A DNA stretch of 64,000 bases, taken from the IMG/VR virus record IMGVR_UViG_3300043122_000050. One strand, given 5' to 3'. Of this stretch, positions 45,572-62,592 are shown piece after piece. The position numbers and the translations under genes are program-made. Under the pieces are notes generated by a model that did not search any database, was not told the origin of the DNA, and saw only the letters and a list, made by a program, of their open reading frames with translations. Numbering within the stretch: position 1 is the first letter of the stretch; each line of letters opens with the position of its first letter. This DNA comes from a virus.

Positions 45572-46698
45572 TTACTCCGTAACTGGTAGGTTCTTCATCG
45601 CATTAGATGAATATTCCTTGATTTTTTCCAAGACAAGGTCAGCTGTCTTCTGCGGATCACCCCCACCATCCACACTAATGGAAATTTTATCTACCATCAT
45701 CATGGGGGCGTTTACACCGGGCAGTCGATTATAAGAAGATGTTCTGTAAGGATCAAATGCCGGGCGATTCAGGTTATCCATAGTGACTTTCTCTTGGAGA
45801 TTAGAGATAGCTGTACTTGTAGGGAAGTCAGCAGAACTCTTAACTTTTTCAAGGTGCTCTTCAGCTTTTGAAGCATACACACTATGGGCAACATTCAGTG
45901 CGATTGTTGCAGCTACCAAGGCTGCAATTAGTGGGTGTTTGGCTATCACGCTAAGTATTCCTCCTACCATTCCACCAGCGGCACCTGCCCCATTGACAGC
46001 AGCAATACCACCAGCAATCTTGATTAAGTTGGAGGCGATCAACCCAAGTCCCACAGCAAATGCTGTAGTCTTCAAGCCTATCTCAGCCCAAGCATTATCT
46101 TGAAGAAATTCAAGGAAGTCTTTGGTATAAGATTCACCGCCCTTCAGACCAACAGAGATATCTTCCAGTACAAGGAATAGTATACCTGCGGCTGCTGCGA
46201 TTCTACCAAACCTTGCGGCAAGAAGTAAAGCCATTCCTGCTATTCCTGCCATCCCCTCGTCTGAAACCTCAAAATACCTAGCCATCCTTGAAAAGCCGCC
46301 TATTATGTTGTCAATGCCTACCACAACCCTTTTAAAAACATCTCCTAGGTTATTCCAAACACCTCCCAACCTTCGCGCCATTTCATAGTTATCCCTCATA
46401 ATATCTGAGAGGGAGTTAAAGATTTTTGCAAACCCTTGCTCACCACCATTCTTGGAGAATATACCTACAAACTTTTCAAACTGGAAGTTCATCCTTCCTT
46501 GAGCAACAATAGATGTACCGAGCGCAATTTGGTATGCATTGTTTGCTTCAGACATCTTTTCCATGTAAGCTGCCATTTTTGGTAGCATTTCATTAGGGTC
46601 AAGTTGTCCAGCTTCCATCATTTTGTTAAGAGCTTTGGTGTCTCCACCAGTCATAACTTCAGCGGCAATTCTAACTGCTGCTGGTAATCTTTCAGCTA
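45572..46698 (-). CDS. Tape measure protein, exon 2 of 2
   Basis: The frame is open from 46698 (..AERLPAAVRIAAEVMTGGDTKALNKMMEAGQLDP..). Gly/Ala-rich TM-like region. Joins in frame to 47717..48896. Confidence 0.75.
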
Positions 46699-47716
46699 CG
46701 TTTGTGTTCAGGAGAGGTCGTTAATCTCTCCCCGCTTTATTCAAGCTGCTATATGTTTCCATATAGACCAGACTATATCTTGTTGCACATGTGCGCAACC
46801 TCACCATTTCCACTCACTTGAGTGTACGCCCGTAGGCTAGTCGTTGAAGTTTACAACTACCAACTATATTTACAAGATATATGTTTGAAACCTCTACGTC
46901 TTTTTATATCGTAGATATGATCAAGTTTCACACTCTTGTTTGTACACAAATCATAGATTTCTTTCGGGCCTACGCCCCTCTCTATCATTTGGCAAATCCA
47001 TTCCACCGTTTTCTCAGACAACCTTTCGGACTTAGCCTTTATTGGAATATCTGGTAAATTCTTTGTTATCTCAGTCCAGTTAGTTTTGGATTTAATCTCC
47101 ATAACTGCTGTTCTTGAAAGGTTGTACTCTTTAGCAAGATCAGAGTTTCTTGCCCCGTTATATAACTTCCAGTAAACCTCTAATACCTGATCACTAGATA
47201 GGATTGATCTACCGTTTGATTCTCCAACATTAGTGTTAAGTCCGTTAGAAAAAGCATGTTGCTGATTTTCTTCCCTTGTAACCCACTCTAGGTTTGATAA
47301 GGTATTATTTGTCTTAATCCCGTCAATGTGGTTGACTTCACTCTTAAAGTCTGGGTTTGGTATGTAAGTTAGAGCTACAAGTCTGTGTATCAGGAAAGCT
47401 CTAGCTACACCATCGTCACATTTAATATTAACCCTTAAATAGCCATTCCTAATGAGTCTGGGTTTCATTAACCTGTTTCTGTGAAGGCTAAAAACATTAC
47501 CCTGAGTATCTATCTTGTAGTTCTTTGCAAATGGAATTTCTTTCATATAATTCTCCTTACTTAGTCATTCTGGAGTTTGTAGTTGTCTTACCTGCTGATC
47601 GCCCAATCTTGACAATTTTCAAACATTCACGCTCGATATTACTATCCACGTTGTAGTTTGTCAAGCTCTAAGGGGTTTCCAGCAATTAAATGAGTTTAAA
47701 GTCAGCTATTATGTTA
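46699..47716 (-). mobile_element. Group I intron (T4 td-like core) in the tape measure gene, carrying a homing endonuclease ORF
   Basis: The 5' exon ends GUCAGU, which pairs with GCUGAC 10 nt into the intron (U.G at the splice site). The intron ends ..GAUUAACGACCUCUCCUGAACACAAACG. Conserved AACGACUA and GAUAUAGUCUGG blocks are present. Confidence 0.8.
46857..47546 (-). CDS. Intron-encoded HNH_3/NUMOD4-type homing endonuclease
   Basis: HRLVALTYIPNP and VNHIDG.K.NN..SNLEWVT motifs, with C-terminal HTH-like repeats. AAGGAGA RBS. Collinear with 59288..59971. Confidence 0.8.
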   Translation of the reverse strand: MKEIPFAKNYKIDTQGNVFSLHRNRLMKPRLIRNGYLRVNIKCDDGVARAFLIHRLVALTYIPNPDFKSEVNHIDGIKTNNTLSNLEWVTREENQQHAFSNGLNTNVGESNGRSILSSDQVLEVYWKLYNGARNSDLAKEYNLSRTAVMEIKSKTNWTEITKNLPDIPIKAKSERLSEKTVEWICQMIERGVGPKEIYDLCTNKSVKLDHIYDIKRRRGFKHISCKYSW

Positions 47717-48896
47717 ACTGACCGCGAAGTTCCTCCGCATAAACCTGTTGTTTACTTACCATTTGCGACACTGCTCGAAAAGAACCTTTCATGGCCTCTT
47801 CATCAAGACCCATCACAGTGCCGTATTTCATAAACGATTTGAAGATTGTTTGTTCTTGTCCGCCAAGGGCTGTACCTTGAATGGAAGCTGCGAGCTTAAC
47901 AAACTCAGGCCCAAGACCTCTTACCGTTTTACCCATCTCTGCTCCTACAGAGTTGAGGAAAGCCATGTTCTCTGCTGCTGCTTGTTCTGACCCAGATACA
48001 GCCAGCAAAGCGTTCTCTACAGACTTAAGCTCTTGTCCAATCTTATTGAAGTTGACAGCAGCGTATGCAGCACCGAAACCCGGAAGTAATCCAGACATAC
48101 TACTAGAAGCAGCTCCGACAGCACCACCTACTGTAGCACCGCCAAACATACCTCTACCACCCGGTCTTCCAGCTCCACCCCCTCCCATTCTAGAAGCAAT
48201 GGCTTGAGCTTTCAATTCAGCAGCAGTGATAATAGCAGCAGCTCTCTTAGCCCCAGCTTCTCTGATAGCTGCTGTACGTTGAGCCATGATAGCTTCACGT
48301 CTAGCTACGTTCTCTTGGATTCTAGCTAAGTTTTGTGCAGCTCTTGATCTCCGCATATCTTCACGCATTGCAGCAGCGTGAGATTTATCCATACCCTCGT
48401 ATGCAGATTGCTTAGCTCCAAACAACTGATTGTACATTGCCTGCTGGGCATTTCTGGCTTTGTTCGTCATATTAGACGATCCACCAGTTAGTCTACCTAC
48501 ACTCTCCCTGAAGTTTGTTTGCCAAGCCTTAGCATTCTTACCAACTGCTCCGGGGCCAGACCACTTCCTAGTTTGCCTTGTAGCCCCTTCCCCAAACAAT
48601 TTATCATACATTGCTTGTTGGGAAGCTCTACTAACTTTGTTGTTTGCTTGTTGTATCTTTCTAGTAACAGCAGCTCTTTTATTAAGAACCTTATTACCAT
48701 CAGAGATAGCTTTGTTTAAATTCTTATTCTGTGTAACTAAGCTAGAAGCTTGTTTAGCAGACTTCTTAGCGCCAGCCTCCATGTTATGAAGACCACGCTC
48801 AATATTATCTAAAGATTTGCCCAGACGATCAATAGACTTCTGGTCTACCTTAATACCAATCTGAGCAAAATAATCAGCAATCTTTTGTCTTGCCAT
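47717..48896 (-). CDS. Tape measure protein, exon 1 of 2
   Basis: Long Ala/Gln/Lys-rich helical sequence ending ..QQVYAEELRGQ(L). A stop occurs 2 codons into the intron. Confidence 0.75.
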
Positions 48897-51195: not shown

Positions 51196-51507
51196 TTATA
51201 CGAAAACTTTACCTTGGATTTTGACGTAGTGAATAGCGCCTGCTAGGCGAGCTTCAAAACTCAAGTCTTCCAAAGTACGGGTTGCACGGAGGTTAGGGTC
51301 AACAGCCAAAACATCAGGTACACTGATCACAGGAGCAGGACTATCAGCCAGGAAGTTATTACGAATACCTTCTTGAATCTGCGCTCTTACTTCTGCTTCA
51401 ATAATAGAAACTCCAGCCGCCGTATAGGCAATTTTTGAAGTATTAACCAAGCGGAACCAGATACGTTCACGCATACGAGCGGTTAGCCAAAGTACACCAA
51501 TCATAAC
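51196..51507 (-). CDS. Tail sheath-like structural protein (DUF3383-type), exon 2 of 2
   Basis: The frame is open upstream of the track's GTG start. The C-terminus ..RLAGAIHYVKIQGKVFV is typical of this family. Confidence 0.65.
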   Translation of the reverse strand, partial: VMIGVLWLTARMRERIWFRLVNTSKIAYTAAGVSIIEAEVRAQIQEGIRNNFLADSPAPVISVPDVLAVDPNLRATRTLEDLSFEARLAGAIHYVKIQGKVFV

Positions 51508-51840
51508 CGTTACTTTCACAAAGAGGCGTTAACTCTTTGCTGGTTTACTTTTACATAAACTCCACTCACACTTTCATGTAAGACAAGACTATATCTTCAC
51601 CCTCTTAACAAGTAGGGTGTCTCCCATTTCGCCTCACTTGAGGCTACGGCATTCCTGCCTAGTCGTTGAACCTTCCCCTCATCAGGGCTTGGCTGCTGAT
51701 TGCCACATAATGTATTGTTCTCAGACATTCACGCTTAACTATATCTCAAGTTTACGTTGTAGTCAACACACCTTCGCGGGATTCCAGCAATTAAAGAGAT
51801 TTTTCACTAACCAATTACTTGATTAGGCGACCTTTTTCAA
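51508..51840 (-). mobile_element. ORF-less group I intron (333 nt) in the sheath-like gene
   Basis: Shares UUUAAUUGCUGGAA, CUACAACGU, AGCGUGAAUGU, AACGACUAG and GAUAUAGUCUUG blocks with the TMP intron. The 5' exon ends in U (UCGAU/GUCG P1). The intron ends ..AGUAACG. Confidence 0.75.
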
Positions 51841-52800
51841 ATCGACAAATTCACCACCAACCATCTTACCGTTAGTAGTTGCGTTTACACCACCAATGTT
51901 CTCATAAGTGTTTACGTTCTTATTAAGAAGATTGACAGTTTCAGTACCAGTTAGTTTATCTACCGAAGTACCAGTGAGGGTTTTATAAGCCCAAGTGTTA
52001 CTGCCCGGAAGAGGTTGAATCTGATAAGCAGTCCAAGCACACTCTGGATAGTTAGCATCGGCATCGGCTTTCCACATGATAGCTGTCTTGTTATAACCAA
52101 GGTCTTTCAGTTGGGAGGCAACGTCAGTGGTTACAGCAGTTTTGACAGCAGCAGAGTTGGTGGAAGTGATATACACTTTCTCACGAGCTTCAATGGCTTC
52201 AGCCAGCTCAAGGATAACAGCGTCAGAATGATCTTCAGCGTTCAGTGCAATCCATTGGTTGTTAGAGAACTCAACAGCGGTGAGGGCGTCAGACCAACTT
52301 TCAGTGGATGCTTTCTTAACAATACTTAGGTTGCTAGAAGTAGTGATACTCCACTCAGCACCCGGCACTGCAACATCAACTTCAAAAGTACCGTCAAGGT
52401 TGTCTGTGAAGTTTACACCAGTGATTTGGAGTTCGGCAGCTACAGCCAGATCAAGAGCAGTGATAATCTCAATGGCAGTGGCAGAAGCATCAGAGGTGAT
52501 TGCAACCTTGACACCATTAATGGTTACGCTATACTCGGTGCTATTAGAAACAGTAGCAACAGTACCGTCTACACCATCAATCTGCTTACGGCCAATGATT
52601 ACAGAGGCTGGAACAAGCTCTTGACCAAAGTAACGAAGACCAGCTTCATATACCGAGGAACCAGAACGGAAATCTTCAGCGAGAGCGCCAAAGGATGTAT
52701 ATGTACGTGTACGTTCAGCGAACGCTGTATGCTCAGCCAAGAAAAGAGGGATGTTAAAAGCAGCTCTACTTACTGCTTGTGTCTCCCTGCTGATGCTCAC
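51841..52800 (-). CDS. Tail sheath-like structural protein, exon 1 of 2, GTG start without an obvious RBS
   Basis: Ends ..NGKMVGGEFVD and joins to VMIGVLWLTARM.. in exon 2. Total 423 aa. Confidence 0.65.
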
Positions 52801-52857: not shown

Positions 52858-53568
52858 CTATTTGTTTAAGTATTGATTTTTGATGTAAGTAACAAGTACA
52901 TCGGTCAATTCTTTGTTGATTCCGCCTGAAACGAAACTGAAGTTGTGTACTTCAAAATGACATTCTCGGCAAAGAGTTACAAGGTTGGTTTCTTCATACA
53001 CCAATTCTTCGTTTCCACGAAAGGGTAGTATATGGTGTGCATTTAATTGGCACCCCTTATTATTGCAAAGAACACAGGTGAATGAGTCCCTTTCAAAAAT
53101 CTTACGAGAGAGTCTTCCACCAGTTTCACGTTTCTTAATTAGAGTTTCTGGATCAAGACCTAATGACGCTCTGTATTTCCTAAATCTTTCCTTCTGCGAT
53201 TCTGTAGCCCTCTCTAGTCTGAGACATCCACAACTTTGACTTTCACCAGCTTTTAATGTTCTCAGTTCTACTAAGGCGGTTCCACCGCAATCACAGATAC
53301 ATTCGCAAAGTCTTTTACCAGTATCTTGCCTGTTAGTTACAACTAATCTACCAAACCTATTGCCCACAGGGTCTTCTACAGGCCGAGCTTTACTCTTAGA
53401 GATGCAGCCGCAACTTTTAAATATTCCCAGTTTAGATTTTGATACAACTGTAGAGTTTCCACAAATACATAAGCAATTGTAGTACATTCGCTTAAATTTT
53501 TCATGTATGCCCGCCTCGGAGACGACTGTAAGATAGTTATAGGTTTCCCCTATTTCAACTTTTCTCAA
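52858..53568 (-). CDS. Free-standing HNH endonuclease
   Basis: CVLCN...NAHHILPF......NLVTLCRECH..VH, plus several N-terminal CxxC-like pairs. Confidence 0.8.
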   Translation of the reverse strand: MRKVEIGETYNYLTVVSEAGIHEKFKRMYYNCLCICGNSTVVSKSKLGIFKSCGCISKSKARPVEDPVGNRFGRLVVTNRQDTGKRLCECICDCGGTALVELRTLKAGESQSCGCLRLERATESQKERFRKYRASLGLDPETLIKKRETGGRLSRKIFERDSFTCVLCNNKGCQLNAHHILPFRGNEELVYEETNLVTLCRECHFEVHNFSFVSGGINKELTDVLVTYIKNQYLNK

Positions 53569-56990: not shown

Positions 56991-58355
56991 TTAAGATTTT
57001 GCTTTATTAAGTTGAGCTTTCAGAATCTTTGCTGTATCGCTCAGGGCTTCTTCATCGCCTTGATCACCTACGCCCAGTTCTTTAAACAGGTCAGTTGCCT
57101 CGACGGCTTTTGCTTTCTTCTCAAAGGAGCCAGCTACAGTGTCAAATGCAGCATCTTCCAGCGAGCCAAGGGAAGCCATCAAAGCCTCCGCTTCTTCTTT
57201 ACCAACACTTGCTTCCAGACGAGCTTGACGAGCATCTAGTTTGGCTTGTGCGGCTACAGCTTCAGCTTCCAAACGAGCAGCTTCAGCTTCTGCTTGGAAT
57301 TGAGCCATCTGTTCTTTAATAGAGGTGGCTTCTGCCTGTGCAGCAGTCATAGCTTCAACAGCCTGTGTCAGTTGCGCCTCCATCTGAGTTTTTTCATCAG
57401 TCAGGGCAGCAAAAGCGGCCTGAAGTTCTACGAGTTCTTGCATTTTGGCAGTATCCCCTTGTTTCGATTTATTTAGAAAACGAGCAGTAAGCATTTTGGA
57501 ATTAGTCTCCCCACTTGCTACGGTTGATAGATAAGAGTAGAATTCTTCAACTTCCATAGCTTTATCAGCCAAGCCAAGTTGAATAGCCTTATCGGCAAGG
57601 AATGTCTTAGCCTCTGTGTTAGTCACAGCTTCAGGAGTCATTCCTCTCATTTGAGCAACATGGGAAGTAAATTCCCCATAGAGCACGTTAACCTTCTCTT
57701 GAAGGTCACTAAGAAACTCTTCTGCGAAGTCGCCTTCAGCATTAAAAGGAATCTTAGATTTACCAGCAAAAACATAAGTGTCTTCAACACCCATTGTCTT
57801 CATTGCTTTATTGGTATTACGAAGTCTGACAACAACACCAATACTTCCCACTTCAGCAGAAGGGTTCATGATGATTTCATCAGAGATAGAAGCTAGAGCA
57901 TAAGCAGCAGAAGCAGCCATACCGTCTACATAAGTAATCACTTTAACGCCAGCTTCATCAGCCATTGTGCGAATACGTTTAGCAGATTCAAATACACCGT
58001 AAGCTTCACCACCGGGACTATCTGTATCAAACACAATAGTCTTTGCACCAGAGCTAATCAGCGACTCTACGTCAGCAAGCATACTTTGATAGCTTGTTGG
58101 AGATTCGCCACACATAGGTTGGTAGTGCAAGTAAGTAAGTGGCCCTTTAAGCTCTACAATCCCTACCTTGGTATCGGAGTTGTAAATAAGCTCACGGCTT
58201 TCACTCTTAGCTTTATTTTCAAGAGCTAGCTGAATCTCTCCAGCATTACGATCTTCCAGAAGGGAGGCAATCTTTTCAAAGTATTGAGCCTCCATCATCT
58301 GAGGTGTTGCAACAAGCTTATTTGTTAGCCTAATAAGACTATGAGCTTTTGACAT
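56991..58355 (-). CDS. S49-family (SppA/ClpP-like) head maturation protease fused to a coiled-coil scaffold domain
   Basis: VFDTDSPGGE and GMAASAAYALAS (catalytic Ser region). The C-terminal half is an Ala/Glu/Gln-rich coiled coil. Confidence 0.85.
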   Translation of the reverse strand: MSKAHSLIRLTNKLVATPQMMEAQYFEKIASLLEDRNAGEIQLALENKAKSESRELIYNSDTKVGIVELKGPLTYLHYQPMCGESPTSYQSMLADVESLISSGAKTIVFDTDSPGGEAYGVFESAKRIRTMADEAGVKVITYVDGMAASAAYALASISDEIIMNPSAEVGSIGVVVRLRNTNKAMKTMGVEDTYVFAGKSKIPFNAEGDFAEEFLSDLQEKVNVLYGEFTSHVAQMRGMTPEAVTNTEAKTFLADKAIQLGLADKAMEVEEFYSYLSTVASGETNSKMLTARFLNKSKQGDTAKMQELVELQAAFAALTDEKTQMEAQLTQAVEAMTAAQAEATSIKEQMAQFQAEAEAARLEAEAVAAQAKLDARQARLEASVGKEEAEALMASLGSLEDAAFDTVAGSFEKKAKAVEATDLFKELGVGDQGDEEALSDTAKILKAQLNKAKS

Positions 58356-59105
58356 TAACTGTTCTCCAGATTATCTGTAGAGTTGTCTTGACCGGCGACA
58401 CTATCACTAGTACCATTACCAGAACCTTTAGCCATTCCATCTCCAGCTCTGCTTCTATTTTGAGGAAGCAAATCTTCATCCACTGGCTGATCTTTAGGGT
58501 AAGGAGTAGCACCAAAGCCTCTCTCACGAATGATGTTGGCAATCTCACGATCAAACTCAATAGCATTTACGGAGAAAATACGTTGTACAAGTTTACTGAA
58601 CTCATCCAAGTCTTCTTCGTCAAGGTCGGTGTAGGTGAACTTAGGAAGCTCTTCATCATCCCAGCCATTCAGGGCGAATGTTTGAGGGATAAGGTCTTTG
58701 TTAAGAACATCTGCAATCTCACGAAGGCGAGCTTCAATGGCCATAGCCATGATGGATGTTTTAGCGCCAGCAAGGGCAAAAGAGCCTACTTGATCTTGAC
58801 CAAGTTTTAGGAAGTCAGCAAACAAAGAAGTGAGGATTTTGTAGTCCCAACGTGTGATAATTGCTGATGTGTCATATTGCTTACCAGAAGCAACAGACAA
58901 GAGTTCAAACTCAAATAGAGGTTGTCTTGATTCAGGATCATATGCGTTTGGAAGGACAATACCGGATTGTTCATTACGTTCAAGGTTTCTCACCATGTTG
59001 TAATAATAATCACGGATAGATTTCTGTTCTTCTGTAGCATCGGGGCTAAGATAGATGGCAGGAATTTTTATTACAGGAGTTCCCACCATATTTCGGGTAA
59101 TTCCA
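58355..59105 (-). CDS. Portal protein, exon 2 of 2
   Basis: The frame is open to 59105 (..(I)GITRNMVGTPVIKIPA..). Overlaps the protease start by 1 nt (TAATG). Confidence 0.75.
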
Positions 59106-60125
59106 CGCTTGTTCGACGAAGATCGTTACACTTCGCCCGTTCTCTTATGAACTGCTGCATGTTTCCATGCAGGCCAGACTATATCATCACCCTTCTACTT
59201 GAGTTAGGGTGCCTACCATTTCCACCCACTTGGGTGTACTCCCTTGCGGGATAGTCGTTGGACGCTTACGATTGAATTGCTGATTATTTAAAAGTTATAT
59301 TCTTTAGAGATATTTGTGTAGATTTTCCTTTTACGCAAACCATGTAGAAGGTTGGCATTAATTTCGGAATTTCTACTTTCCGAGATTATCTCGGCGTTTG
59401 TCTTACCTTCGGCAATAAGATCACAAACCCATCTTATAGTGCTTTCGGAGAACCTTTTAGCTCTGTTTACTTGAATATTGTATTCTTTTGAAATGTGTCT
59501 CCATGCTTTCTTAGCACGAACCATTGATATAAAAGAACGATGAACACCTGTGGTGCGCTCTATGTCAATGTTCCGCATACCGCTCTGAAGCAGTTCACAC
59601 ACTTCTCTTACTTCTGCTTCTGTGTACTTTGAGAGGTAGTGGTTTTCACCAATACTATTGTCAAGTAACCCATTCTCATGGGCATGTTCATAATTACCTT
59701 TATGACTAACCCACTCAAGGTTTTCTACACAGTTATTAAGCTTGTTACCATCTTTATGGTTAACGAGAGGTAGACTGTCTACGTTAGGGACAAAAGCTTC
59801 TGCCACAAGTCTGTGTACAGAGTGTTTCTTAACGCTTCCATCTTTGTAGTAAATAGCGACTCTTGCATACCCGGCATTTGAAATATCGGGAGTAAGTGCT
59901 GCACCAGTCTGACCAATCACTGCACCATCTTCAGTAACGAAGTAGTTATCAGTTTTTGCAATTCTTTTCATTTAAGCCTCCTACAGATTCGGAAGCAATT
60001 CAATCGTTTTCGCTCAGGATTACCCACGACATCACTCGTTTGGGCTTCCCCTGAATTAGATAGGTTTTGGAGCTAGGCTCCGAGGTCATCATACCAGATT
60101 TCTCTGTGTATGCCACTAGAAGTTA
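59106..60125 (-). mobile_element. Group I intron in the portal gene, carrying a homing endonuclease ORF
   Basis: P1 is GCCAU/GUGGC (U.G at the splice site, 9-nt loop). A 5-bp P10 forms between UGGAA of exon 2 and UUCUA next to the guide. The core blocks AACGACUAUCCC, CAAGUGGG and GAUAUAGUCUGG are present. The intron ends in G. Confidence 0.85.
59288..59971 (-). CDS. Intron-encoded HNH_3/NUMOD4-type homing endonuclease
   Basis: HRLVAEAFVPN and VNHKDGNKLNN..ENLEWVS motifs. TAGGAGG RBS. Full-length paralog of 46857..47546. Confidence 0.8.
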   Translation of the reverse strand: MKRIAKTDNYFVTEDGAVIGQTGAALTPDISNAGYARVAIYYKDGSVKKHSVHRLVAEAFVPNVDSLPLVNHKDGNKLNNCVENLEWVSHKGNYEHAHENGLLDNSIGENHYLSKYTEAEVREVCELLQSGMRNIDIERTTGVHRSFISMVRAKKAWRHISKEYNIQVNRAKRFSESTIRWVCDLIAEGKTNAEIISESRNSEINANLLHGLRKRKIYTNISKEYNF

Positions 60126-60850
60126 ATGGCCTCTTGTTCTTCTATTCCAGTGCGGTATTTCCATGCAAGCCAAGCATTCTTTAGCATACTTGAACCTTCA
60201 GGGTTATCCCTCTCAGGGTTCACTCTAAAAAGCATAAACTTGTTCCTAGGGATCGTAATAACATTACCATTACGAGCACTTAGGGAGTTGTATCTACCGT
60301 ACTGATTAACCGTTGTGAGGTCTTGCTCTACAGCTTGTAAGTCTCTACCATCGTCACTAAATACCCAACCAGAGATTGTATCTTGTGAGCGAATAGGAAG
60401 TTTCTTCCAGCCAATCAATCCATCATTGAATTTAGAGCCTGTAGCTTTAAGGCGTCTTCGATACACCTTCTCTTGTACAGAGAATCCATAGACATAGCTA
60501 CTAGATACGTCTTGGATGAATGAGGCCCAAGTAGCCTCCATATCGTCTGTACATTGCTGAAGGAATGCAGCCTTCTTTTCTTGTTCTGGTGTAGCCCCTT
60601 TAGGCGCTTCCACTTTCCAATCAATCCGTGCTAACATCATTTTATAGAGGTTGATTGCACTGTTGATTGTAGCGTCTTTCTGCATATTCTTGTAAGTGTT
60701 GATAACCTTTGGCCATCGTAGCTCTGTACGAGCTTCTTCAAGAATAACTTTATTACTGACTTTTAATCCGGTTGTACCTACTTCACCCATTCTAATTCTG
60801 GGTACAGAGGCATCTCCTGATTCTAGTCCAGCAGTATCAAGCTCTGCCAT
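60126..60850 (-). CDS. Portal protein, exon 1 of 2
   Basis: TAGGAGG RBS. Immediately downstream of terL. Ends ..YRTGIEEQEA(I). Exons 1 and 2 together give 491 aa. Confidence 0.75.
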
Positions 60851-60858
60851 CTAACCTC

Positions 60859-62177
60859 CTAAACATGGAATGGGTTTTCTCTTTGCATATTAGGTAATAC
60901 GAAAGAGGTGGGTATTTGTGCTGATCTTGCTAAGTGTTTGAATGCGTCTGAGCAGGAGTCAACGATATCGTCCTTGACCTTGCGGCTACCGTCAAAAGCT
61001 TCTAGTTCGTCAACCAATTCATCATTCCACGGCCCTCTCACCATCGAAACATGCTTAGCTTCAGCTACAGCAGCGAATGGTTGGAATCTCAGCACTTTGG
61101 ATTGACTTGCTTGATAGATACGTGCATAGAAACCACGTTCAGCAAGCTCTTTAACGATTGACTGAGCGTAAGCTTTACCAGCAGCTCCGGGGTCAGCAGG
61201 GATTACAATATCTGTTGTTGGGCCATCATGAATGGCTGTCTGGATAATCTTCTCCAGAACACCATGTGCTCTATCTCTAAAGCGTTCAAGGTCTTCAATG
61301 TAGTAACGTCCATACTTATCTCTGGACATTAGAACACCAGCAGTCCAGTCTGGATTTGGATTAGATTCGGAAGGAATACTTCCGCTAATATCCCAAGCCC
61401 TTACTCTCTTCATGATATGATCTGTTGGCCTTGTAGGGACAATCTCTAACCAATCCCCTTTGAAGTAGCCAGCGGCCTCTTCTTTAGCATACCAAGAGCC
61501 GTCTAGAAGACGCATCCTCTCGATACGTTTCAAACCAAGCAAGAATGCTAGGTATTTAGGGTTCTTCTGAATGCCAATTGGGTTATCATACACATTAGCA
61601 CTTACAAATGTCATAGAGAGGATGTGTTCCTCTTTAATATGTGGAACCTTCTTTAGCATCTCCTCTTTAGTAAGAGCAAACACAGGTTTACCGCCATCGT
61701 TTGTGAAGAAGCGGATTACACCGTCCTTCTCTGGCAGAGGAATCCCTGTCTCTGGGTCAAGGTGCCATTCCACCCAGTTACGGAGAAAGGAGTTGTACAG
61801 AGGGTTACAAGTCATTACTAGCTGACTGCTCATTTGTGCTTTAGAACGCAAACGAGACATTAGATAGAGAACACTTACTTCTTGTTGGTGTTGAGCTTCG
61901 TCAAACACTACGAGAGAATATTGTCCACCGTCGAAGTTATATCTGTCTTCTGGTCTATCAAGGCCAGCAAAACTAATCACTGCCCCGCTTGGGAAAGTTG
62001 CTGAGAGTTTCTGTTCGTGAAACTTTGGCTTGAACGGTTTATACATCTGTTTGGCTTCATCAAACAAGCCACCAGATTGTGTTAGTTGTGTACGTGTCTG
62101 TCGAATAAACACAGCACGGAAATGAGGGTCGCCAATTTGACCTAGTGCTTTAAGTAGAGCACAATGTGATTTACCAC
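60859..62177 (-). CDS. terL: Terminase large subunit, exon 2 of 2
   Basis: Begins in mid Walker A (..GKSHCALL). Walker B VVFDEAQ. C-terminal nuclease-type acidic residues (AWDISGS, DDIVDS). Confidence 0.85.
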
Positions 62178-62424
62178 CATGATTGTTCAAGAAAGTTCGT
62201 TACTCTTTCTCCGCTTTCGCAGCTACATATTCCTATGCAGACCAGACTATATCATCATCCCGTAGGATGCCCACCGCTTCCACTCACTTGAGTGTACTCC
62301 CTTTCGGGATAGTCGTTACGCTTTCTGAAATTAATCAGCTTAGCTCGGTATTGTCCGTTCTGGAGTTTCACCGAATTCAATGGGTTATTCGATCAACATT
62401 ACTGTTGAAAGGGACTGTAGGTCA
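62178..62424 (-). mobile_element. Compact ORF-less group I intron (about 247 nt) inside the terL Walker A codons
   Basis: P1 is GGGAU/GUCCC (9-nt loop, U.G at the splice site). Core AACGACUAUCCCGAAAGGGAGUACACUCAAGUGAGUGG...GAUAUAGUCUGG. The 3' boundary was chosen so that the ligated exons read GGGAGCGKS. Confidence 0.7.
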
Positions 62425-62518
62425 ATCCCGCGCCGCCGCCGAAAATTATAATGTCAGCAGGACAGTTTAAAAACATCTTTTGTTTCGGGCTTGAAGGCCC
62501 ATAAGCTTGATTTGTCAA
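62425..62518 (-). CDS. terL: Terminase large subunit, exon 1 of 2 (31 codons plus 1 nt), TTG start
   Basis: AAGGAGG RBS 6 nt upstream of the TTG. Reads (M)TNQAYGPSSPKQKMFLNCPADIIIFGGGAG. This ORF is not in the supplied track. Confidence 0.7.
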
Positions 62519-62592
62519 AGTTATCCTCCTTGTAGACAGCTTTATCAAGCGTCCTGTATTTCAAAGACGCTTTGTAAAACTTTGTAAAACTC

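Follow-up and report, generated by a model that had tools for sequence, protein, structure and literature searches.

The window that we analyzed is a 64,000-nt stretch of viral DNA (IMG/VR record IMGVR_UViG_3300043122_000050). Near its end, on the minus strand, lies terL, which encodes the DNA-packaging ATPase TerL. The largest terminase ORF, 60859-62190(-), encodes 443 amino acids and starts midway through the Walker A motif. A preliminary description of this DNA had called the start of the ORF artificial, and the reading from TTG 62190 (MNNHGGKSH...) bears this out. About 330 nt upstream of the ORF's start is another TTG codon, at 62518, with a Shine-Dalgarno sequence (AAGGAGG, 62525..62531, minus strand) 6 nt to its 5' side. 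This TTG begins exon 1 of terL (62425..62518, minus strand), which has 31 codons plus 1 nt and encodes the first half of Walker A. Its translation is MTNQAYGPSSPKQKMFLNCPADIIIFGGGAG, followed by the U of the Cys32 codon (U62425). Exon 2 (60859..62177, minus strand) opens with GU, which completes Cys32, and continues with GKSHCALL... to the stop codon. It encodes the rest of Walker A, Walker B (FDEAQ), and the nuclease domain. Between the exons are 247 nt (62178..62424, minus strand) that we identify as a group I intron from a match to Rfam family RF00028 and from intron-less homologues.

The preliminary description had proposed both the ribosome-binding site and the TTG-initiated mini-exon at 62518-62425, and they hold up: the same ribosome-binding site and TTG are used in two related loci, L004 and L001. 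It had also stated that exon 1 was missing from the list of ORFs, which needs qualifying. Exon 1 is too short to have been called as a gene, but it is contained within a 49-amino-acid ORF (62399-62548) of the mechanical ORF list. The exon-1 frame continues for eight codons past the exon and then reaches a UAA (62401-62399).

Joining exon 1 to exon 2 gives a coding sequence of 1413 nt and a protein of 470 amino acids, ...ADIIIFGGGAG-C-GKSHCALLKALGQI..., as had been predicted. The P-loop of the joined protein is GGGAGCGKS, or G-GAGC-GKS, which leaves the Walker A pattern GxxxxGK[ST] intact. The spliced TerL matches PF03237 (Terminase_6N; 70.5 bits, residues 25-276) and PF17289 (Terminase_6C; 64.9 bits), both above the curated cut-offs. 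In an alignment of 19 homologues from the family, the invariant residues include G27, G28, A30, G31, G33, and K34 of Walker A, D124 and E125 of Walker B, and four more acidic residues (D294, D434, D435, and D438).

The exact junction follows from homologues that lack the intron. In a search of 5.8 billion proteins, we found uninterrupted homologues of 468-469 amino acids that are 79-85% identical to TerL and start at the equivalent position. They read ...ADIIIYGGGAGCGKSHCALLKALGQI... across the junction (...YGGGAGCGKSHCALL in those at 83-85% identity), and proteins P0002-P0008 read ...YGGGAGCGKSHCALLKALGQI at the P-loop. The nine-residue motif GGxxGxGK[ST] is intact in 106 of the 120 best homologues, and 22 of the 120 have exactly GGGAGCGKS. 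We found no homologues that naturally start at the position equivalent to 62190; full-length homologues encoded by a single ORF do exist. At the DNA level, the TerL of IMG/VR contig L004 is 96% identical, and its gene is uninterrupted at the P-loop, where the codons are GGG GCG GGG TGC GGA AAG. L002 and L005 are further intron-less alleles at this site.

The preliminary description had placed the junction at U62425 to G62178, with the P-loop continuous across it. This is the only join that gives the sequence of the uninterrupted homologues, and when aligned to them the spliced product matches across the junction. The predicted ligated RNA is ...GCGGGAU|GUGGUAAA... (also given as ...GCGGGAU|GUGGUAAAUC...), and the peptide that spans the junction is IIIFGGGAGCGK. 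The splice boundaries cannot slide because the first base of the intron (U) differs from the first base of exon 2 (G), and the last base of the intron (G) differs from the last base of exon 1 (U). The intron is in phase 1 of codon 32, that is, after the first base of Cys32 and inside Walker A. We rejected a 5' splice site after U62424, which lies away from the U·G pair at the splice site and breaks the frame.

An exact look-up of the 443-amino-acid ORF in the contig index returned nothing, and the exact 19-mer across the 5' junction is absent from IMG/VR. The insertion site of this intron appears to be unique among the loci found so far. Because these searches found no second locus with an intron at the same position, P1 and the splice site of the terL intron are without independent comparative support. 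A Megablast search of GenBank phages with the terL locus found only short matches to the intron core, so no isolate phage is close. By tblastn, the nearest isolates to TerL are Pseudomonas phages of the KPP10/PAK_P3 type, at 48% identity or less. A sequence search of the PDB with a TerL profile found only a PhoH P-loop protein, which confirms the P-loop alignment.

The Rfam match to RF00028 covers 62223-62434(-) and model positions 1-253, with a score of 65.8 bits (E = 1.8e-14). The gathering score for this family is 50, and the match is not due to chance. The model stops at 62223, and the last 45 nt of the intron (62222-62178) are outside its coverage, so the 3' end rests on homology and on the alignment of related introns. 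The length of about 247 nt given in the preliminary description is correct (62424-62178 is exactly 247 nt), and its description of the intron as very compact was an overstatement: about 250 nt is an ordinary size for a group I intron without an ORF in bacteria or phages.

In what follows, intron nucleotide i is window coordinate 62425 - i. P1 is formed by the exon sequence GGGAU plus intron nt 1-2, paired with nt 8-14 (CAGUCCC). This 3' strand, the internal guide sequence (62411..62417, minus strand), was identified from the Infernal alignment and from the minimum free energy (MFE) fold, and both give the GGGAU/GUCCC pairing that had been proposed. At the 5' splice site, U(-1) forms a U·G wobble with G10 (U62425 with G62415). 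P2 is a hairpin in the MFE fold, UCAACA-GUAA-UGUUGA (nt 17-32; 62393..62408, minus strand), and the UAA that ends the exon-1 frame lies in its GUAA loop.

The 5' strand of P3 together with P4, P5, P6, and P6a (the P4-P6 domain) occupies 62320..62384 on the minus strand, as judged from the Rfam/Infernal alignment, the fold, and covariation. P3 pairs nt 41-47 with nt 149-155; P4 pairs nt 51-56 with nt 75-80 and P5 pairs nt 61-63 with nt 69-71, both with compensatory changes; and P6 with P6a spans nt 81-105 (RNAalifold places the register at G81-C105), with compensatory changes in P6a. The catalytic core, with P7, P7.1, P7.2, the 3' strand of P3, P8, and J8/7, is at 62245..62314 on the minus strand in the Rfam/Infernal alignment. 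The P7 pseudoknot pairs GACUA (nt 111-115, 62314-62310) with UAGUC (nt 176-180, 62249-62245), and P8 is at nt 156-169. Between P7 and the 3' strand of P3, at 62309-62281, are the hairpins P7.1 (UCCC-GAAA-GGGA, nt 116-127, with a GAAA loop) and P7.2 (CACUC-AAGU-GAGUG, nt 131-144). P7.1 and P7.2 are a hallmark of IA-type phage introns, and this architecture suggests that the intron is IA2-like.

The MFE fold places three peripheral hairpins near the 3' end (62190..62240, minus strand): P9 (nt 185-202, 62240-62223) with a GGAA loop, P9.1 (nt 203-214, 62222-62211) with a GAAA loop, and P9.2 (nt 215-235, 62210-62190) with the conserved loop UAACGA (AGUAACGAA). A 3' tail of 12 nt (nt 236-247) ends in G247, the terminal guanosine (omega G; 62178, minus strand), which forms an invariant last column across eight introns and is followed by the 3' splice site. 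G62178 is the only G that restores both the frame and GGGAGCGKS. The MFE fold contains all of the nested helices from P1 to P9.2 (-79.8 kcal/mol, z = -3.2). By eye, we also see a weak P10 between exon-2 GUGG and intron CUAC (62420-62417), of 4 bp with a 1-nt offset. In relatives, P10 is 4-6 bp by eye, with one compensatory change (L042 versus L035).

Covariation was assessed across eight TerL P-loop introns, namely the terL intron at 62178-62424 and seven homologous ones. Of the 36 pairs that RNAalifold predicted, 26 have compensatory changes. With an explicit structure that includes the P7 pseudoknot, both partners have changed in 28 of 59 pairs. In this structure, 75.8% of the cells are paired, versus 33-54% if the partners are slid by 1-3 columns, and none of 500 shuffles reached the observed values. 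P7 is 100% paired in all eight introns, with one compensatory change. P9.2, which is outside the Rfam model, has compensatory changes in five of its six pairs.

These results lead us to conclude that terL very probably contains a 247-nt group I intron, without an ORF, that splits the Walker A motif and is removed from the RNA to give a message for intact TerL. We considered three other explanations for the locus. One is that the intron is a decayed remnant that does not splice, in which case the phage genome would be defective or misassembled and its terL a pseudogene. Against decay, every core helix is intact, as are J8/7, the P7 pseudoknot, the U·G pair, and the terminal G; the Rfam score is above gathering; and the exons are both open, with 96% identity to relatives. 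Also, TerL is essential, and an insertion in its P-loop that failed to splice would be lethal and would not be expected to persist. In favor of decay, the intron has no endonuclease ORF and hence no selfish selection for mobility, its insertion site is unique so far, and its splicing is predicted from sequence; we consider decay very improbable.

Another explanation, which we find more improbable still, is a gene in pieces, with a 39-amino-acid N-terminal peptide and a 443-amino-acid C-terminal protein that assemble without RNA splicing. The mechanical ORF list does contain ORFs for both parts (62399-62548 and 60859-62190), and phages are known to have enzymes that were split after insertion of a homing endonuclease, such as ribonucleotide reductase (work cited in PMC5418858). 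Here, the break would cut a codon in two, midway along the eight-residue P-loop; the intervening sequence is a complete ribozyme; and the full-length homologues are all single chains. The C-terminal part would have to start at TTG 62190, a codon without a Shine-Dalgarno sequence that the fold buries in the 3' strand of P9.2. There is as little to be said for a real intron with another 3' splice site. There are several G's near the 3' end, and the Rfam model ends at one of them, G62223, but splicing there would lead to an in-frame stop after seven codons. G62198, which the preliminary description had offered as an alternative site, is part of the conserved L9.2 loop; its use would join U to AA and create an immediate stop codon, so we excluded it. 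Splicing after G62175 would give GGGAGCKS, in which a Walker A glycine is lost and which falls one residue short of the motif in the 106 intact homologues. We also considered whether a constant spacing from the conserved GAACA tail to the terminal G lends independent support to the 3' site, and rejected this, as portal-protein homology puts the terminal G of the portal intron 2 nt earlier than expected from the alignment.

Given group I splicing of terL, the standard chemistry of these introns suggests the following steps. The pre-mRNA would fold so that GGGAU of exon 1 pairs with the guide GUCCC to form P1. An external guanosine bound at P7 would attack after U62425, and the freed 3'-OH of exon 1 would then attack after the terminal G62178, with P10 (exon-2 GUGG with intron CUAC) perhaps helping to align this second attack. 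The exons would be ligated to read GGA-UGU-GGU-AAA-UCA. The sequence and its homologues show the ribozyme signature, the covarying structure, and the exact junction, whereas splicing, its efficiency, and the route by which the intron was acquired are inferred. On unspliced RNA, ribosomes would be expected to halt at the UAA in the P2 loop, ahead of the catalytic core. In the introns of T4, an early in-frame stop similarly keeps ribosomes off the catalytic core.

The unspliced message encodes a 39-residue peptide and possibly an N-truncated protein without the P-loop. Because neither product has an intact P-loop, a functional packaging ATPase would need splicing. The preliminary description had proposed that the ATPase can only be made after splicing, and its sequence supports this, as the P-loop is intact only in the joined frame. 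Production of intact TerL, and hence DNA packaging, would appear to depend on splicing; packaging in this phage would then hang on ribozyme folding and on the availability of guanosine.

Without the 31-codon exon, TerL is annotated minus half of Walker A, and phylogenies or functional calls from the 443-amino-acid ORF would be wrong. Public protein sets contain P0001 (MNKKAGCGKS...) and P0101 (MGGGKSY...), which are exon-2-only TerL products with artificial starts, so the same annotation error is widespread. The practical value of identifying the intron is a corrected TerL annotation, and current understanding is not overturned.

The intron described here adds another case to a known kind: earlier work has documented group I introns in the terL genes of phages and validated them by experiment. 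Those in Bacillus phage SIOphi (Bastillevirinae) splice in vitro and in vivo (PMC11878797), and splicing of the terL intron of Shewanella phage KASIA was demonstrated by RT-PCR (PMC8541194). As in those phages, a group I intron lies in the terL gene of a tailed phage and splicing would restore the frame. In contrast, terL introns of Bastillevirinae average about 800 nt, as opposed to 247 nt, and an HNH gene is present in the KASIA intron and in four Bastillevirinae terL introns but not in the intron that we describe. The TerL families of SIOphi and KASIA are also unrelated to this one. Insertion at Walker A is not described in either study, and the terms "Walker" and "P-loop" do not occur in PMC11878797. 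More broadly, terminases are among the typical targets of phage introns (PMC3984707), and in crAss-like phages introns and inteins are dense in the core genes, among them TerL (PMC7886860).

The IA2 introns of T4 (in td, nrdB, and nrdD or sunY) share the core, P7.1 and P7.2, and the early in-frame stop with the terL intron, and they too are in phage protein-coding genes. The T4 introns differ in that they carry, or once carried, endonuclease ORFs in their loops and are found in genes of nucleotide metabolism rather than in terL.

The intron seems to have a mosaic build. The preliminary description had noted that its 3' core is shared with other introns in the window and that its 5' half differs. 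An alignment within the window confirms this: nt 102-242 match the 3' ends of its three companion introns there at 67-72% identity, and nothing else in the window matches the 5' 100 nt. Outside the window, we compared it segment by segment with two other introns: the TerL intron of L001, which is inserted 7 nt upstream of the equivalent site in a gene whose protein is 96% identical, and an intron of Vibrio phage D69, which carries an endonuclease ORF. In P3-P6, the L001 intron is identical at 60 of 65 positions (92%) and the D69 intron at 35 of 55. From J6/7 through P7, P7.1, P7.2, the 3' strand of P3, P8, and the 3' strand of P7, the D69 intron is the closer one (71/76, 93%, versus 51/73 for L001), and in P9 it is L001 again (18/21 versus 8/21). 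P1-P2, which must match the local exon, resembles neither intron (8/26 for L001; D69 is not informative).

Because the closest relative switches from segment to segment, with sharp boundaries, modular exchange is supported, and the terL intron appears to be a mosaic of modules that are common to other phage introns. The preliminary description had also suggested modular exchange; the incongruence between segments is different and stronger evidence for it than the comparison it used. Could purifying selection on the catalytic core and common descent, without recombination, explain the likeness of the 3' halves? The shared segment does hold P7, the 3' strand of P3, P8, and J8/7, which are the most constrained parts of group I introns, and its identity to the three other introns in the window is only 67-72%. 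But constraint alone does not predict incongruence by segment or sharp boundaries, and we consider this explanation unlikely, if well worth keeping in mind.

Within this TerL family, Walker A is an insertion hot spot for selfish elements. There are related introns at four positions within 10 nt, and inteins at two more. Together, a metagenome scan and protein matches place these elements at six positions within seven codons; of the two patterns used in the scan (80 loci), one was a P-loop peptide without interruption, so intron frequencies from it are biased. The introns are at YGG|AMGGGKS in L042, L030, L035, and L081; at GGG|AGCGKS in L001; at GGAA|GSGKS in L049, L039, and L041; and, in the window, in phase 1 within GGGAG-C-GKS. 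The inteins are at GG(S/A)AG|SGKS in P0030, P0068, and L010, which is 1 nt from the site of the terL intron of the window, and at GK|S in P0096 and P0115. Each intron junction rebuilds a sequence that is found intact in other homologues, and the P-loop introns are homologous to each other (nhmmer E-values of 1e-35 to 1e-60). The inteins interrupt the same few codons as the introns and differ in that they are removed at the protein level instead of from RNA; they are unrelated elements.

Intein-bearing TerL homologues are about 800 amino acids long, with insertion sites that read GG(S/A)AG|C...N|SGKS and GAGK|A...N|S; the GK|S type of intein starts with Ala. The inteins of P0030, P0096, and P0115 match the Pfam family LAGLIDADG_3, and that of P0068 does not. 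A distant TerL homologue in L082 has an intron at Walker B (about 750-1020; group I, 76.2 bits) that splits FLVD|EAQQ between D and E. A second recurrent intron site is near codon 435, in the KDDxVD nuclease motif, and is occupied in loci that include L004, L009, L013, L041, L043, L047, and L049. The introns at Walker B and near codon 435 belong to the same family as those in the P-loop. In L004, this insertion is 784 nt long (1552-2336) and scores 60.2 bits as a group I intron.

The catalytic motifs of TerL (Walker A, the D|E of Walker B, and the KDD of the nuclease) are thus recurrent targets of introns and inteins. That introns and inteins prefer conserved motifs is well known (PMC2814812). 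We speculate, tentatively and with more doubt than conviction, that the Walker A codons serve one lineage of ORF-less introns as a landing pad in several registers, each intron with a P1-P2 guide and interchangeable P3-P6 and P7-P8 cores. If so, these introns would change target when the guide module is swapped or mutated, free-standing endonucleases that abut terL in relatives could assist, with the intron shielding its site from cleavage, and the P-loop introns would form a natural series for how group I introns change insertion sites. Of our results, only this P-loop hot spot, with its several registers and its chimeric introns without ORFs, goes somewhat beyond what would be expected. The close-set alternative sites and the chimeric introns make a useful natural data set on intron mobility.

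The preliminary description had stated that the terL intron has no ORF, and we found no endonuclease ORF in it: same-strand ORFs are 41 amino acids or less, the antisense ORF is 95 amino acids, and none has a Pfam match at E ≤ 1. An intron without a homing endonuclease cannot home by itself, and it was probably acquired via recombination or by homing driven in trans. There is no free-standing endonuclease beside terL in the window; upstream are a Gp77-like structural gene and an unassigned 292-amino-acid ORF. The situation differs in distant relatives. In L042, an HNH_3+AP2 gene (1593-2180) abuts or overlaps the start of the intron-split terL, and in L049 (915-1898) and L039 (659-2170), T5orf172 genes with repeated zinc-ribbon motifs abut or overlap it. 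These endonuclease-like genes suggest the layout of collaborative homing (PMC3984707). In cyanophage S-PM2, similarly, an ORF-less psbA intron is accompanied by the adjacent free-standing endonuclease F-CphI, unlike the window, where the gene upstream of terL is the Gp77-like one.

A comparison of the window with L001 may also bear on how the intron was acquired. DNA identity is 98-100% upstream of terL, 58-68% in nt 1-150 of the coding sequence, and about 93% thereafter. The intron is inserted at nt 94 of the coding sequence, inside the low-identity stretch. This trough is suggestive of a co-converted patch that was brought in with the intron, although the N-termini of the family are variable anyway. 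An identity trough in the exon at 62370-62518 is also seen in the comparison with L004, and there is a second trough at nt 500-690 of the coding sequence.

The preliminary description had reported four introns in the window, and RF00028 matches agree: 51565-51850, 59155-59362, and 62223-62434, plus a sub-threshold match at 46749-46981. A 17-kb stretch holds all four introns, each of them in a late or structural gene. In the portal gene (Portal_Mu type; 58355-60850, minus strand), the intron is about 1 kb long and has an HNH_3 ORF (59288-59971). Its Rfam matches are at 59155-59362 (53.5 bits) and, weakly, at 59801-60135. The uninterrupted portal protein of L002 places the junction at ...EEQEAI|GITRNMVG, with exon 2 from near 59105. 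In the tape-measure gene (TMP_3; 45572-48896, minus strand), the intron has an HNH_3+NUMOD4 ORF (46857-47546). The 3' part of this intron (46749-46981) scores 32.4 bits, which is under the Rfam threshold, and over its 3' 140 nt it shares 71% identity with the terL intron. The strongest match in the window, at 106.6 bits, is the intron at 51565-51850, which is without an ORF and lies in a DUF3383 structural gene (51196-52800, minus strand), where it splits the Pfam profile exactly at 367/368. Among the structural genes there is also a free-standing HNH gene (52858-53568, minus strand), which encodes 236 amino acids with repeated Cys-rich motifs and is a candidate for a trans-acting homing enzyme.
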